DNA from: Candidatus Microsaccharimonas sossegonensis
GTDB lineage: Bacteria; Patescibacteriota; Saccharimonadia; Saccharimonadales; Saccharimonadaceae
Assembly: GCA_004100325.1 (NCBI GenBank)
Contig: SCKX01000001.1
Location: forward strand, 291,453-355,452
DNA length: 64,000 bases
Reading direction: 5' to 3'
How positions within the stretch are numbered: position 1 is the first letter of the stretch; the number at the start of each line of letters is the position of its first letter. Shown piece after piece: positions 17,804 to 64,000 of this stretch. The position numbers and the translations under genes are program-made. Below the pieces are notes generated by a model. The model was not told where the DNA came from. It did no database searches and saw only the letters and a list, made by a program, of their open reading frames with translations.

Positions 17804-18050
17804 AAAGAACCTCCATGATTAATTAACTTGTGTTGTAAGAAGACGCAATTGGTTCGGCCGTCCGAACGTATGCGAGTAGAGGAACCCCATTGATAGGTGC
17901 AGGTTCATAGTAATAAAAATAGTAACATACTTAACAGTGGTATAATAGTATAGTCAACGTGCATGGATGAGGTGCTGGATGCAGGTATTTTGAATACAAA
18001 ATGCGTACACCCGTTACCTTCACCCTGCTTTAATAAAAGAGGAGCCTAAC

Positions 18051-20920: not shown

Positions 20921-23191
20921 ATGGGTCAACAACGACTCGCTACGCCTACACCAGACGATACCTCAAAACAACCGTTCCGTCACGGTAACAATAACGGTAA
21001 AAACAACAGTAATAACAACAGTAATAACGGGAACACTACCCAGCGCCCAAAACAGAATAATACTGTCCTAGCAGGTACGCAAACTCGCCGGGGTGAAGTC
21101 TTCCGTGCCCAGCGACGTACCTCTGAAGATGTCAACCTTCGCGCCTCACAGCACATCATCAACGTGCCAGTGAATAAATCTGTCTTTAACGGTTATGGTG
21201 GCAAACAGTACAGCCTTGCCGACCAAAAGAAGCAGCCACGCACAAACGGTCCAAAACTTCGTATCATTCCACTTGGCGGACTTGGCGAAATGGGTATCGG
21301 CAAGAACATGATGGCGGTCGAATACGACAATGACATTATTGTCATCGACATGGGCTTCTTGTTCCCAGGTTCAGATTATCCAGGTATTAACTATATTATT
21401 CCTGACATAACGTACCTTGAAGAAAACAAGCATAAAATCCGCGGCATTGTCTTTACCCACGGACATCTCGACCACATTGGTGCCTTCCGTCATATCATCG
21501 ATAAGATTCCAGCACCAATTTACGGTTCTAAATTCACGCTTGCGATGGTTCAAAAAACGATGGAAGAAGCTACCAGCGGCTTTGAACCTGAGTACAACGT
21601 GCTGGACCCAGAAGCGCACGAACGTGTCCAACTTGGCGACAGTTTTAACATCGAACTCGTCCGTGTAAACCACTCGATTCCAGATGCGACAGCCGTCGTT
21701 ATTCGGACTCCACTTGGTGTAGTGATTGATACGGGTGACTGGCGGTTTGAAGAAGCACCAGTTGATGGACGTAAATTCGACCTTGAGCGACTCACTGAAA
21801 TTGCGACAAAAGAAGGTATTTTAATGCTCATGAACGAATCAACCAACTGTGAGTCAGATGGTACGCACACCCATGGTGAGTTCGATATCCAAGAAAGCAT
21901 GGGACAGGTGATGGAAAAATATCCTAACAGCCGTCTTGTCCTTAGTTGTTTTAGTAGCCAGATTCACCGTATGCAGGTTATTCTCGATGAAGCCAAAAAA
22001 CACAACCGTAAGGTTGCTTTTGCTGGGTACAGCATGATCCAAAACGTCGAAGTCGCGCTTCGTACCGGAACCATCAAAGTTCCGAAAGATGTCATCGTAA
22101 AAATGGAAGACATCGTCAAAATGCCTGACGGTAAAGTAACCATCGTCTGTACTGGTTCACAGGGTGAGTTCAGTGCCGTCCTTAACCGCATGGCATCCGG
22201 TTCACATAAATTCATTAAGATTAAGGGCACTGACGTTATTGTCTTTAGTTCAAACCCAATTCCTGGTAATGAGAAGTACGTTGTTCGTACTGTCGACGGT
22301 CTGATGCGAGAGGGAAGTGATGTCATCCAAAATGGTAAAACTCACCTGACTGGTATTGGTCCGCTGCACCTTTCGGGTCATGGCTACTACGATGACCACG
22401 TCAAGCTGATTAACGCGCTGAACCCACGGTACTACCTGCCAATCCACGGTGAGTTCCACATGTTGGTTCATAACGCCGAGCTTGCCCAAAAAGAAGCCGG
22501 TATCCCCCGTGAAAACATCTTCGTCTGTGACAGTGGCGACGTGATTGAAATCACCACCGAAGGTGCCAAAAAAGCCGGACGCGTGCCTGTTGGCGGCGTC
22601 ATGTACGACGACTCTGGCGCGATTGTGTCGGAAGTGGTACTAAAAGACCGCATCCACATGGCAACTGAAGGTATGTTCGTCGTGATTCTGACCGTATCAA
22701 AAGGCAGCGGACGCCTACTGACTAGCCCTGATATTATCTCTCGTGGCTTCATTTACCTCCGCGATAGCGAAGAATTAATGGGTGTCATTCGCCAGTACTT
22801 AAAGCAAAAAGTTGCCCGCACTTTTAATGGTCGCCGTGTCGACCTTGACACCGTCAAGAAGGAAATCAAAGACGAATTAACGCACGTTCTGTACGATCAG
22901 ACTCGCCGGACGCCAATCGTGATCCCAGTAATCAACGAAATCGGCGGTGGCGGTGGTCAAAAGCCTCAGGCTGAAGGCCACCAGCAGCGCCAGCAACAAG
23001 GCCGAAATGGCGGTAATAACAGTGGTCCACGACCAAACAACCGTCGCCCACAAGGTGATACTTTGCAGGAGGAAGTCGTTCCTGAAGCTGTCCAGGCGCT
23101 TGATCTCGAACCAAAATCCTTCCCGGCACCGATGGTGCCCGACACAGAAGCAGTTGAACCAAAAAACCGTTCTGACGCCCGCGGCTACTAA
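20921..23191 (+). CDS. rnj: Ribonuclease J with low-complexity N- and C-terminal extensions
   Basis: IPLGGLGEMGIGKNM, HGHLDHIG, NHSIPD, DTGDW, CTGSQGE, HLSGHG, PIHGE. Confidence 0.96.
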   Translation: MGQQRLATPTPDDTSKQPFRHGNNNGKNNSNNNSNNGNTTQRPKQNNTVLAGTQTRRGEVFRAQRRTSEDVNLRASQHIINVPVNKSVFNGYGGKQYSLADQKKQPRTNGPKLRIIPLGGLGEMGIGKNMMAVEYDNDIIVIDMGFLFPGSDYPGINYIIPDITYLEENKHKIRGIVFTHGHLDHIGAFRHIIDKIPAPIYGSKFTLAMVQKTMEEATSGFEPEYNVLDPEAHERVQLGDSFNIELVRVNHSIPDATAVVIRTPLGVVIDTGDWRFEEAPVDGRKFDLERLTEIATKEGILMLMNESTNCESDGTHTHGEFDIQESMGQVMEKYPNSRLVLSCFSSQIHRMQVILDEAKKHNRKVAFAGYSMIQNVEVALRTGTIKVPKDVIVKMEDIVKMPDGKVTIVCTGSQGEFSAVLNRMASGSHKFIKIKGTDVIVFSSNPIPGNEKYVVRTVDGLMREGSDVIQNGKTHLTGIGPLHLSGHGYYDDHVKLINALNPRYYLPIHGEFHMLVHNAELAQKEAGIPRENIFVCDSGDVIEITTEGAKKAGRVPVGGVMYDDSGAIVSEVVLKDRIHMATEGMFVVILTVSKGSGRLLTSPDIISRGFIYLRDSEELMGVIRQYLKQKVARTFNGRRVDLDTVKKEIKDELTHVLYDQTRRTPIVIPVINEIGGGGGQKPQAEGHQQRQQQGRNGGNNSGPRPNNRRPQGDTLQEEVVPEAVQALDLEPKSFPAPMVPDTEAVEPKNRSDARGY

Positions 23192-23206
23192 ACATACTTA
23201 GATTCA

Positions 23207-23236
23207 AAAAAGACTCTCATTAGGGGGAGTCTTTTT
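23207..23236 (+). terminator. Intrinsic terminator after rnj
   Basis: AAAAAGACTCTC...GGGAGTCTTTTT. Confidence 0.75.
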
Positions 23237-23247
23237 GGTTAAAGAGA

Positions 23248-23357
23248 GAAGCGGCTATGCTGCCCCAGTAAAACATCTGCAGTCCGAGTCTATCCCGGTA
23301 CTGAAACAGAGAGAGACCCGGACTGCAGATGTTTTACTGGGGCAGCATAGCCGCTTC
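23248..23357. repeat. 110-nt element with perfect 39-bp inverted arms (hairpin family, copy 1)
   Basis: 23248-23286 is the exact reverse complement of 23319-23357; the core is shared with 47500-47541. Confidence 0.9.
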
Positions 23358-23461
23358 AGGCTCAAACCATAACCCTCTTGCAAAATGTAGTAAATTTTGC
23401 TATAATAACTCTTATGAAATAGCGGGAAGTCCGCTCAAGATAAACTATAATAAAAAAGAGT

Positions 23462-25747
23462 ATGGCTAAAAGAAAAAAACGCGGCGTCAGTCGCAAAAAA
23501 TCTGCTCGAACAAACGTCGCACCGCAACACACATTGCCACAGGGGTTCTGGGCGCAGGTAGGGGCGATTCTCTTGATTGCTTTTTCTTTACTACTCATTT
23601 TGAGCTGGTTTGGACTCGGTGGCCCAATCCTTGATTGGCTCTACGCATCTTCAATGAGCCTCATCGGCTATGCGGTCTATATTGTGCCACTTGTCTTTAT
23701 CTATGTTGCGGTAGAGACTTTCCGCGTCGAAGACAACCGCTTGCCATTTGTTATGAAAGCCGCAACCGTCTTCTCACTGGTATGGTTTGCAGGCCTGTTT
23801 GGGCTGCTAAAAGCCGCTGACGGCAAAACGACCGGTGGCTATATCGGTGACCTCGCAAACAGCGGTATGCTGGTACTTGTCAACAGCGGCGTGGCGGCAT
23901 TCATCTATATTCTTTTGATCTTTATGACGACGTTATTTATCATTCGCGTCTCACCAATCACGATCATTAAAAAGCTTTACCAGCTGACTCGTCGCGATAC
24001 CACTGAACAAGATGCCAATGTGAAGGTCATGCGCAGTGCCGCCGCCCTTGACGCACCATCCAAATCAACACTTGCCGCTGACTTCAAAATGAATGCCGGT
24101 GTCTCTGTTATTGGAGTCGAAGAAACGGACAAAAAACAATCTCGCCTCTCAAGTCTCAAGGGTGCGACGCCGCGCGATAAAATCGCTGAAGATCGGGCAG
24201 CCCTCGTGACCATCAGTGATCCTAACTGGGAAGCGCCATCTATCGATCTATTGGAAAAAAACCAATCTCCGGCTGATGCTGGTGATGTTCAGCAAAATGC
24301 CCAAATTATTAAAGCTACATTAAGTGAATTCAATATCGACGTCGATATGAAAGGCGCTAACATTGGTCCAAAGGTAACACAGTACACTTTAAAACCACCT
24401 TCAGGTGTAAAACTCACGCGTATTACGCAGCTTGAAACGAATATCGCGTTGAACCTCGCCGCGCAGAGTCTTCGCATTGAAGCGCCCATTCCTGGTCAAA
24501 AAGCTGTCGGTATCGAAGTGCCAAACCCTAAAGCTGCTGATGTCCGCCTCCACTCAATCCTTACCAGCCCACAGTGGAAAGCACATAATGAGCCATTGAA
24601 GTTTGCGATTGGTAAAGATATTTCTGGACAGGCAATGCTCGGTGAACTCAATAAGATGCCCCACCTTCTTATCGCCGGACAAACTGGCTCTGGTAAGTCG
24701 GTGATGATTAACACGCTGCTGACGAGTCTTTTGTATCACAATAGCCCGTCTGAAATGAAGCTGATCCTTGTTGACCCAAAGCAAGTGGAAATGGCGCCGT
24801 ACGAGGATATACCACACCTCCTTACCCCCGTTATAAATGAACCAGAAAAGACAATTAGTGCCCTCAAGTGGGCAGTCAATGAGATGGAACGCCGTTACAG
24901 GCTCCTAGCTGAAAATAAGGTTCGTGACATCGCAACTTATAACAAAATGATTCAATCTGGTGCAAAAAAGATTACCGTCGCTGATGAAGATCGCATACCA
25001 CAAGAACACCACAACGGTGCCATGCCATATGTCGTGATTGTCATCGACGAGCTGGCTGACCTCATGATGGTTGCATCCCGCGACGTCGAAGCGCTCATTG
25101 TGCGGCTTGCCCAAAAAGCCCGTGCGGTTGGCATCCACTTGGTGCTTGCCACCCAGCGTCCATCCGTTGATGTTATTACCGGTCTGATTAAAGCCAACGT
25201 GCCGGCGCGTATCGCCTTTACGGTTGCCTCTCAGATTGACTCGCGGACAATTCTTGACCAAATCGGTGCCGAAAAGTTGCTTGGTCAGGGTGACATGTTG
25301 ATGTTGACACCTTCGATGAGCAAACCAAAGCGTATTCAGGGTGCCTGGGTCACTGACGAAGAAGTCGTGAAAATTAGTGACTATTTGCGTGCGCAGTCGC
25401 CTCCACAGTACAACGATGAGGTTGTCAGCCAGCCGGTCGTCCTTAATGGCAAGGGTGGAGTCGTCATGGACTTTGATCGTGACGGTGATGGTGACGACGA
25501 CATGTACCGTGATGCCGTTCGTGTCGTAATTGATGCCGGTAAAGCCAGCGCCAGCCTCTTGCAACGTCGTCTACGGGTTGGCTACGCCCGCGCAGCACGC
25601 TTGATTGAGAACATGGAAGAGCAGGGCATTATTGGCCCGGCTGATGGTGCGCGGCCGCGCGACGTGCTTGTCGGCAGCTTCGATGACGTTTTTGGTACCC
25701 GCACCTCTGACGGCGCAACTGATATGAATGGCGATGATCTCGGATAG
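23462..25747 (+). CDS. ftsK: DNA translocase FtsK/SpoIIIE
   Basis: 4-TM N-terminus, GPKVTQY, RIEAPIPG, HLLIAGQTGSGKS, IDELADLM, ATQRPS, gamma domain ASLLQRRLRVGYARAARL; promoter TTGCAA(23378)-17-TATAAT(23401). Confidence 0.97.
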   Translation: MAKRKKRGVSRKKSARTNVAPQHTLPQGFWAQVGAILLIAFSLLLILSWFGLGGPILDWLYASSMSLIGYAVYIVPLVFIYVAVETFRVEDNRLPFVMKAATVFSLVWFAGLFGLLKAADGKTTGGYIGDLANSGMLVLVNSGVAAFIYILLIFMTTLFIIRVSPITIIKKLYQLTRRDTTEQDANVKVMRSAAALDAPSKSTLAADFKMNAGVSVIGVEETDKKQSRLSSLKGATPRDKIAEDRAALVTISDPNWEAPSIDLLEKNQSPADAGDVQQNAQIIKATLSEFNIDVDMKGANIGPKVTQYTLKPPSGVKLTRITQLETNIALNLAAQSLRIEAPIPGQKAVGIEVPNPKAADVRLHSILTSPQWKAHNEPLKFAIGKDISGQAMLGELNKMPHLLIAGQTGSGKSVMINTLLTSLLYHNSPSEMKLILVDPKQVEMAPYEDIPHLLTPVINEPEKTISALKWAVNEMERRYRLLAENKVRDIATYNKMIQSGAKKITVADEDRIPQEHHNGAMPYVVIVIDELADLMMVASRDVEALIVRLAQKARAVGIHLVLATQRPSVDVITGLIKANVPARIAFTVASQIDSRTILDQIGAEKLLGQGDMLMLTPSMSKPKRIQGAWVTDEEVVKISDYLRAQSPPQYNDEVVSQPVVLNGKGGVVMDFDRDGDGDDDMYRDAVRVVIDAGKASASLLQRRLRVGYARAARLIENMEEQGIIGPADGARPRDVLVGSFDDVFGTRTSDGATDMNGDDLG

Positions 25748-46934: not shown

Positions 46935-47447
46935 ATGAAAAAAAATAATCTTATTGAACGCACACTCATTCTTTTTAAGCCTGACGCCGTGCAGCGTGGC
47001 GTTGTTGGTGAAATTCTGACCCGTTTTGAACGTGTCGGGTTAAAGATTATCGGTACGAAAATGATCGCACCCGACCGCGACCATTACTACAAGCACTACG
47101 AAGAAATCGGGCAAGTGATTACGCGCCGCGGTCAAAAAGTCTTTGATAATAATCTTGATATTATGAACGCTGGTCCGGTTATCGCAATGGTATTCGAAGG
47201 CATCGAAGCTGTCGAACTTGTACGTAAGCTTGTTGGTTCAACTGAACCAAAGTCATCAGCACCAGGGACAATCCGCGGTGATTTCTCACATATGAGCTAT
47301 GGCTACGGTGACGCCGAAGATAAGGCAATTCCAAACCTTATCCATGCATCAGGTGACCTTGCGGATGCCAAGCAAGAGATCCCGCACTGGTTCTCGGACG
47401 ATGAACTTTTTGATTACTCGGTTTTGAACGAAAAGTTCACGAGATAG
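46935..47447 (+). CDS. ndk: Nucleoside diphosphate kinase
   Basis: ERTLILFKPDAVQR, PGTIRGDF, NLIHASG. Confidence 0.95.
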   Translation: MKKNNLIERTLILFKPDAVQRGVVGEILTRFERVGLKIIGTKMIAPDRDHYYKHYEEIGQVITRRGQKVFDNNLDIMNAGPVIAMVFEGIEAVELVRKLVGSTEPKSSAPGTIRGDFSHMSYGYGDAEDKAIPNLIHASGDLADAKQEIPHWFSDDELFDYSVLNEKFTR

Positions 47448-47457
47448 AGTAACGTTC

Positions 47458-47563
47458 CGGATCGCAAAGCCAGTTCAGGAACTGCCTCGCGCCGGGCCCC
47501 TCTCTGTTTCAGTACCGGGATTGACTCGGGCTGCGGATGTTCCTGAACTGGCTTTGCGAGCCG
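47458..47563. repeat. Hairpin element with perfect 21-bp outer arms (hairpin family, copy 2)
   Basis: 47462-47482 is the reverse complement of 47539-47559; core 47500-47541 matches the reverse complement of 23272-23313 at 39/42 nt. Confidence 0.88.
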
Positions 47564-47593: not shown

Positions 47594-47614
47594 GTGCCCC
47601 GGTAGCTCAACTGG
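47594..47614 (+). repeat. 21-nt duplicate of the 5' end of tRNA-Arg
   Basis: GTGCCCCGGTAGCTCAACTGG at 47594-47614 and 47674-47694. Confidence 0.9.
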
Positions 47615-47675
47615 CCCAGCGAAGCGATATAGAAATCGTGACGCTATCCAGTTGAATTATTGTCGCGTACAATGT

Positions 47676-47752
47676 GCCCCGGTAGCTCAACTGGATAGAG
47701 TAGATCCGTCCTAAGGATAAGGTTGTAGGTTCGACTCCTGCCCGGGGTACCA
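47676..47752 (+). tRNA. tRNA-Arg(CCT)
   Basis: Cloverleaf: acceptor GCCCCGG/CCGGGGT, anticodon loop GTCCTAA, T-loop TTCGACT, encoded CCA. Confidence 0.9.
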
Positions 47753-63802: not shown

Positions 63803-64000
63803 GCAGTTCATTAGACGACCGCTTGCCATAAAACAGCAAGAGGAAAGTCCGGGCAGCATAGGATATGGCAGTTGTTAACGGCAACCGGGGGTAACCCTAG
63901 GGAAAGTGCCACAGAAACAAAACCGCCTGCTAGATTTCGATCTGGGAGGTAAGGGTGAAATGAGTGGGGTAAGAGCCCACAGCGTCATATGGCGACATAT
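63803..64000 (+). ncRNA. rnpB: RNase P RNA, 5' part (truncated by the window end)
   Basis: GAGGAAAGTCCGGGC, GAAAGTGCCACAGAAA, GGGTGAAA...GGTAAGAGCCCAC; TATAAT 63789-63794 upstream; the 5' end is approximate. Confidence 0.93.

Follow-up and report, generated by a model that had tools for sequence, protein, structure and literature searches.

Two long hairpins lie in a 64,000-nt stretch of the Candidatus Microsaccharimonas sossegonensis genome (hereafter the window), and they raise the question of what kind of element keeps a common centre while its arms are free to vary and yet remain paired. Copy 1 is formed by 39-nt arms at 23248-23286 and 23319-23357, exact reverse complements of each other around a 32-nt centre. 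Copy 2 has exact reverse-complement 21-nt arms at 47462-47482 and 47539-47559, and its pairing reaches out to 47458-47563 with one mismatch (left arm 47458-47482, right arm 47539-47563). Re-measurement bore out the preliminary description in these respects and also in the block common to the two copies, where 47500-47541 matches the reverse complement of 23272-23313 at 39 of 42 positions, the 22-mer CTCTCTGTTTCAGTACCGGGAT included. Folded as single-stranded DNA, copy 1 reaches −56.8 kcal/mol (z −19.6 versus shuffled sequence) and copy 2 −35.1 kcal/mol (z −6.9). Assembly errors can yield long perfect palindromes, but we give virtually no credence to an assembly fold-back artefact or a chance similarity as the source of these hairpins. 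Logan contigs, assembled independently from four DNA runs, cover 23000-23600, the copy 1 site included, with no differences, which excludes fold-back; the element occurs at orthologous positions in dozens of independent assemblies (more than 100 counted); and the 22-mer, found twice in the window, is expected 0.00 times (100 shuffles).

Copy 1 is preceded by a putative rnj gene (20921-23191, + strand; a 756-aa ORF labelled in the first reading) and by an intrinsic-terminator-like hairpin with a T-run at 23205-23237 (+), for which the scan gives 23214-23237 and the wider extent was drawn by eye. Downstream lies a promoter-like site for ftsK, TTGCAA-17-TATAAT with a TG extension, at 23378-23406 (+), in a flank conserved in genomes G034, G015, G012 and G061 (G000 being that of Ca. 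M. sossegonensis). Copy 2 starts 10 nt past the stop codon of ndk (46935-47447, +) and is followed by a tRNA gene at 47676-47749. Upstream of this tRNA gene, its 5′ 21 nt occur a second time and its D arm occurs in antisense (47594-47694), an arrangement kept at the orthologous locus in G003 (L099) and G015 (L100) and absent in G012, G034 and G061. Elsewhere, the window holds an MDR-NUDIX RNA motif (RF02918) at 17843-17911 (−), which exceeds its gathering score at 65 bits, and the 5′ part of a class A bacterial RNase P RNA at 63803-64000 (+), the remainder of which is cut off by the window end.

Both hairpins are copies of a palindromic element of ~100-125 bp that is specific to one family of Saccharibacteria. 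Our covariance model R1 has exactly two matches in the window, one at 47484-47536 in copy 2 (42 bits, E 2e-9) and one at 23277-23326 in copy 1 (− strand; E 5.5e-6). The copy 2 core, 56 nt at 47483-47538 (+) with the form TGCCTCGCGCCGGG-apex-CTCGGGCTGCGGAT, was delimited by R1 and two core alignments. Copy 1 carries a degenerate, 'perfected' version of this core; the forward strand of the element is there the minus strand of the window, and the 22-mer lies at 23292-23313. A search of the whole G000 genome (810 kb, six contigs) found five copies, three of them following a gene (rnj, ndk, serS) and two lying in frame within one (dnaX, leuS); this disposes of the possibility that no further copies exist. 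The intergenic placement behind genes that had been proposed thus holds for both window copies but misses those inside dnaX and leuS. Likewise, the 22-mer is present in both window copies, as described, but it is merely one apex variant and the basal module below it is more widespread.

The truly conserved part of the family is this basal module, GGCTTCRCN-CYGGG...CTCRGG-YTGCAGAT, which at the ndk locus can be extended to (A)C-GGCTTCRCN-CYGGG...CTCRGG-YTGCAG-AT-G(T), with apical parts that are quite different between members of the genus. Within the genus, 23 of 40 genomes carry the pattern, at 1-9 copies each, and controls gave zero matches. Of 121 genomes of the family searched with R1, 26 gave matches, representing 24 of the 95 sampled genera, and among 401 genomes the strict basal-module pattern matched in no other family of the order. 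The exact apex 19-mer is confined to just three other GTDB species of the same genus (Candidatus Microsaccharimonas / Saccharibacteria) and to 39 real metagenome loci, which group into a few orthologous sites (ndk-tRNA, dnaX, serS-hpf, rnj-ftsK and upstream of rpmE); two further matches, in Flintibacter and Flavihumibacter, were dismissed as chance. BLAST searches of the core against phage and plasmid collections gave no match, and a single pattern match in IMG/VR, in a high-GC contig without a hairpin, was also attributed to chance, leaving a phage or plasmid origin unsupported. In one ndk locus (L104, G025), two members lie in opposite orientation ~170 nt apart downstream of the gene. A literature search returned no description of such an element for Saccharibacteria or Patescibacteria.

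The core is an asymmetric, imperfect hairpin of 36-57 nt, composed of the basal module and a lineage-variable apex that ranges from a simple 11-nt hairpin to a 30-nt structure; the 22-mer is one of these lineage-specific apices. Over a set of 37 diverse cores, pairing holds in 95.6% of cells compared with 82.3% in shuffles, and both-side changes number 69 cells compared with 18, values reached by none of 500 shuffles. Two basal pairs covary in a strictly Watson-Crick manner (GC 44 / AT 14 and CG 43 / TA 14), with no G-T or A-C intermediates. The core also has a bulged base and a nearly constant G-T pair (54 of 58), and its unpaired blocks GGCTTC and CTGCAGAT show little or no variation.

Conserved loops and covarying helices are what a structured ncRNA would display, or a cis-acting RNA element such as a 3′-UTR stabiliser, a processing site or a protein-binding RNA. 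Such an element would also fit the two conserved G-U pairs kept by the forward strand, the location of most intergenic copies just 3′ of stop codons, and the transition mismatches in the arms, which would form G-U pairs 21 times on the sense strand versus 10 on the antisense strand; this roughly twofold excess leaves some room for RNA-level selection on stems. We nonetheless regard an RNA function as unlikely, since the covariation, real as it is, comes with no preferred strand. Between co-directional genes the core is sense in 12 cases and antisense in 14, and at the ndk, leuS, mnmA and rnj loci it has been inverted in place in some species and not in others. At ndk, G000, G012, G026, G017 and G029 carry it one way and G034, G015, G008, G003 and G025 the opposite way, the core remaining 100% identical between G034 and G015; at leuS, the core of G012 is inverted relative to G000 and G034 inside homologous arms; and at mnmA, G026 and G005 share one orientation and G024 has the reverse. 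Translation as part of an ORF applies to about half of the classified copies. Furthermore, the arms contain ~792 Watson-Crick pairs, 31 G-T or A-C and 48 others, and pairing so nearly pure is unlike the outcome of RNA-level selection.

Neither a promoter nor a terminator is conserved alongside the element, and copy 1 sits between a terminator-like site and a promoter. Gathering scores applied to the window and E-value scans of 16 loci (to an E of 10 or 1) gave the element no Rfam match beyond generic miRNA precursor hairpins, in agreement with the earlier remark that it was not recognised as a named element; the ncRNA suggestion made at the same time was not supported by the orientation, translation and pairing data. 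No RNA run was found to contain this organism. A role as an intrinsic terminator was rejected as well: there is no T-run at copy 1 or copy 2, copy 1 follows a separate terminator, and copies within genes cannot be terminators. In other species, A/T runs do border some copies.

Insertion within genes is common. The dnaX copy of G000 occupies approximately residues 364-401 with the frame open, and in-frame read-through copies are found in dnaX, leuS and mnmA within the genus. In other genera, 14 of 20 copies examined (about two thirds) sit within long ORFs that continue through them, the genes concerned being tsaD (three times), cysS (twice), an rlmD-like gene, topA, dus, rnhB, fpg, an ABC-F gene and leuS. 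The peptide encoded depends on the orientation and frame of the copy. Intron-like removal was rejected because the reading frame is open through every intragenic copy, and the dnaX copy, which lies after domain III, was discarded as a tau/gamma frameshift signal on finding no slippery site and no insert in G012 or G061. In annotation, such hairpins risk being mistaken for ncRNAs, terminators or protein insertions.

Comparison with unoccupied alleles, which the preliminary description had proposed for the rnj-ftsK and ndk-tRNA intergenic regions, was informative at both: G061 is empty at each, and G006 and G005 are also empty at ndk. The leuS site is empty in 27 of 40 genomes, the mnmA site is occupied in 3 of 40, and G012 and G061 lack the dnaX copy. 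What distinguishes an occupied site from an empty one is usually the entire hairpin with both arms. The junctions at leuS, mnmA and rnj-ftsK have no direct target-site duplication, and a possible duplication of a TC dinucleotide is seen in three of four copies of one subfamily only. Occupied leuS alleles form an in-frame decay series from 53 residues through 50, 45, 43, 38 and 30 down to a footprint. At the position of the G000 hairpin, the rnj-ftsK spacer of G012 has an unrelated insert of ~690 nt with a small reverse-strand ORF (L270, G012:C5:295110-295800).

Once in place, the element is conserved above synonymous sites. Among G000, G012, G034 and G015, fourfold degenerate sites of ndk are 39-55% identical, and the hairpin downstream, which is present in both orientations, is 80-100% identical in its core and 86-89% in its arms; the sequence just beyond the arms has diverged. 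Such conservation is not expected of purely selfish DNA and suggests that the element serves the host in some way, or that gene conversion among the copies or drive maintains it. Its persistence in both orientations implies a factor or a drive process. Unbiased correction of one arm by the other would not by itself slow evolution, and we therefore consider that mispaired or mutated copies are being removed.

These data bear most directly on the idea that the element is a host DNA-level site, a hairpin or cruciform bound or processed by a lineage-specific protein, with dispersal secondary. Examples would include nucleoid organisation, topoisomerase action, or a recombination or DNA-uptake signal, all of which we hold to be possible although improbable on balance. 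A function of this kind would not depend on orientation, and it would suit both the conservation of core and arms far above fourfold sites and the near-invariance of unpaired and asymmetric positions, the G-T pair among them, where paired positions covary. The low, stable copy number of 1-9 per genome over 24 genera is also in keeping with it. On the other hand, many close relatives do without the element at given loci with no visible replacement, the leuS copies are decaying via deletions, and a benefit to the host poorly explains insertion within essential genes. Chromosomal position and strand follow no pattern (orientation linked to the replichore was rejected, the strands being mixed over short distances in complete genomes), and no partner protein was found.

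The arms follow rules of their own. They are locus-specific inverted repeats of 15-35 bp (39 in copy 1), usually with NGAAAC/GTTTCN or GAC/GTC at their base. As first described, outer arms are unrelated between different loci; at one locus, however, they are related by descent across species. Members of subfamilies have inner-arm segments in common. In one subfamily, four copies, each in a different genus and a different gene, have the outer ends GCCTTTTCGCC...GGCGAGCGGC, and the spacing between these ends and the core is constant. In G035, at least six copies share their arms too, so that whole units are repeated, while the five copies of G000 have no common ends. Four of the G035 copies lie within ~100-500 nt of contig ends, which suggests that assemblies break at the element repeat; at two such ends (L158, L160), arm units (cttcctagg...) are partly duplicated in tandem beside the copies. 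Apart from the partner arm, the arms have no match elsewhere in the genome and none in IMG/VR, and captured foreign or genomic DNA was rejected as their source.

Between orthologues compared in the same register, arm differences are fully compensated in 34 cases, one-sided in 12 and uncompensated in 3. The closest orthologue pairs have one-sided differences only, indicating that mismatches arise first and are resolved later. The arm sequence has more than one source. At leuS, native coding sequence (E-I-D-F-L-I-S-E), with a homologous counterpart in the empty alleles, serves as the left arm, and the inner right arm repeats it in inverted form; at mnmA and in the rnj-ftsK spacer, the empty sites have neither arm, so that both are new DNA; and dnaX is ambiguous. 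A general rule of native flank plus inverted copy was rejected on these grounds. In copy 1, the core is affected too: in place of its left half stands the complement of its right half. The inner 13 nt of its left arm, CATCTGCAGTCCG, correspond to the over-written core positions, and comparison with other copies reveals that the GGCTTCRC motif is missing. This over-writing accounts both for the 39-bp arm length and for an R1 score of just 29.5 bits.

Replication template switching has been credited with producing perfect stems in a single step, compensatory changes of several bases at once, longer stems and inverted loops (PMC8794818), and all four patterns are present in this family. The earlier suggestion that the arms are rebuilt by template switching has thus fared well, given the mostly compensated changes, the in-place inversion of the core and the half-core replacement in copy 1. 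Template switching, which we infer from these patterns rather than from a reconstructed phylogeny, would shape the arms. The element is a natural test case for template switching that creates, maintains and flips long perfect stems, and for the extent to which 'RNA-like covariation' can originate at the DNA level.

What moves the core between loci is a separate matter. A RAYT/IS200-like or IS110 reader had been proposed and received no support, as none of the 40 genomes of the genus contained a Y1 (PF01797) or an IS110 (PF01548) domain, the controls of the Y1 profile search being positive. Thus, no related autonomous IS was found among the families searched (Y1 and IS110, 40 genomes), and the DEDD transposase of IS110/bridge-RNA elements is among the domains absent. 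Reverse transcriptases, present in 15 of the 40 genomes, are uncorrelated with the element and were rejected as its mobiliser. One of them, outside the window at G000:C1:630749-631360, is a 355-aa ORF with an RVT_1 domain (74 bits) that could be of DGR or retron type. The broader proposal of a REP/MITE-like non-autonomous element is therefore upheld in part: dispersal, presence/absence variation, in-frame insertion and a subfamily with shared ends favour it, but the enzymes put forward are absent.

The reading we favour, with moderate confidence, is a DNA-level palindromic element of the RPE/MITE kind, the RPEs being Rickettsia palindromic elements. Its core would be read as a folded single strand or cruciform by a putative trans-acting protein, for mobilisation, for a DNA-level role in the host, or both, and its arms would carry no sequence information. 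Replication template switching between the arms would keep them perfectly complementary, extend and flip them, and sometimes over-write the core, as in copy 1, with selection against mispaired intermediates presumably acting too. The element would spread, or would once have spread, in the manner of RPEs. Several observations weigh against this best reading: no mobilising enzyme was found, the copies are conserved in place above synonymous sites, the arms of leuS differ in origin from those of mnmA and rnj-ftsK (dnaX being ambiguous), and G-U mismatches are in excess on the sense strand.

A bolder variant, which we offer only tentatively, makes the core the recognition module of a new DNA-level system, in which a putative protein inserts, maintains or copies the element without a known transposase. 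Fold-back synthesis would build the arms and thus leave an inverted rather than a direct repeat, and the element might be kept by drive, for instance through preferential uptake or recombination of hairpin DNA in naturally competent bacteria. If true, the element would define a new class of DNA, mobile or self-maintaining, that can write loops of ~35 residues into essential proteins.

Several known systems resemble parts of this picture. With integron attC sites, the element has in common a conserved structure suited to folded-strand recognition, extrahelical bases, an unpaired spacer, a variable terminal structure and little sequence conservation elsewhere. An attC-like recombination site served by a tyrosine recombinase, with integron-like cassettes, would match the imperfect hairpin with its bulged base, unpaired internal spacer, variable terminus and AC...GT junction. 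It is nevertheless highly improbable here, as the copies are solitary rather than arrayed or flanking cassettes, they lie inside housekeeping genes, the hairpin base is unlike RYYYAAC/GTTRRRY, the arms far exceed the length of an R box, and no integrase adjoins any copy.

Template switching and quasipalindrome correction (Ripley; Lovett; Löytynoja and Goldman) would account for the arms and the flips but leave the conserved core and its arrival at new loci unexplained. Small palindromic repeats are usually defined by conserved ends; this family, spanning at least 24 genera, instead conserves its centre and lets its arms vary, perfectly paired as they remain. Shared ends of the classical MITE kind are seen in the four-copy subfamily (GCCTTTTCGCC/GGCGAGCGGC); the G035 copies share arms, and the G000 copies share no ends. 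REP sequences and REPINs are similar in being non-autonomous extragenic palindromes located just 3′ of genes; as doublets they form long hairpins, and it is folded DNA that is recognised, as we propose for the present element. However, REPINs have conserved arms and a variable centre, the reverse of the Saccharibacteria element, which moreover lacks the conserved GTAG tetranucleotide, has no Y1 transposase in the 40 genomes of its genus, numbers 1-9 copies per genome instead of hundreds and is commonly intragenic.

The closest described analogue is provided by the RPEs, palindromic repeats of ~100-150 bp without a transposase of their own in reduced-genome, host-dependent bacteria. No enzyme is known to mobilise them either. 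Copies within an RPE family are alike over their full length, and each family has a conserved encoded peptide. In contrast, copies of the present element resemble one another over the central 55 nt only, joined in one subfamily by the outermost 11 nt, and have locus-specific arms; the use of both orientations means that the encoded peptide is not conserved, unlike that of RPEs. The two have no sequence relation, and the likeness is one of kind rather than homology. RPEs are dispersed between genes and also, with unusual frequency, in frame, translated, inside unrelated housekeeping genes (PMC10969869), and the same in-frame read-through is seen here in dnaX, leuS, mnmA, tsaD, cysS, an rlmD-like gene, topA, dus, rnhB, fpg and an ABC-F gene. 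In parallel to Rickettsia, these reduced-genome episymbionts thus carry a repeat in frame within the essential genes dnaX, leuS, tsaD and cysS.
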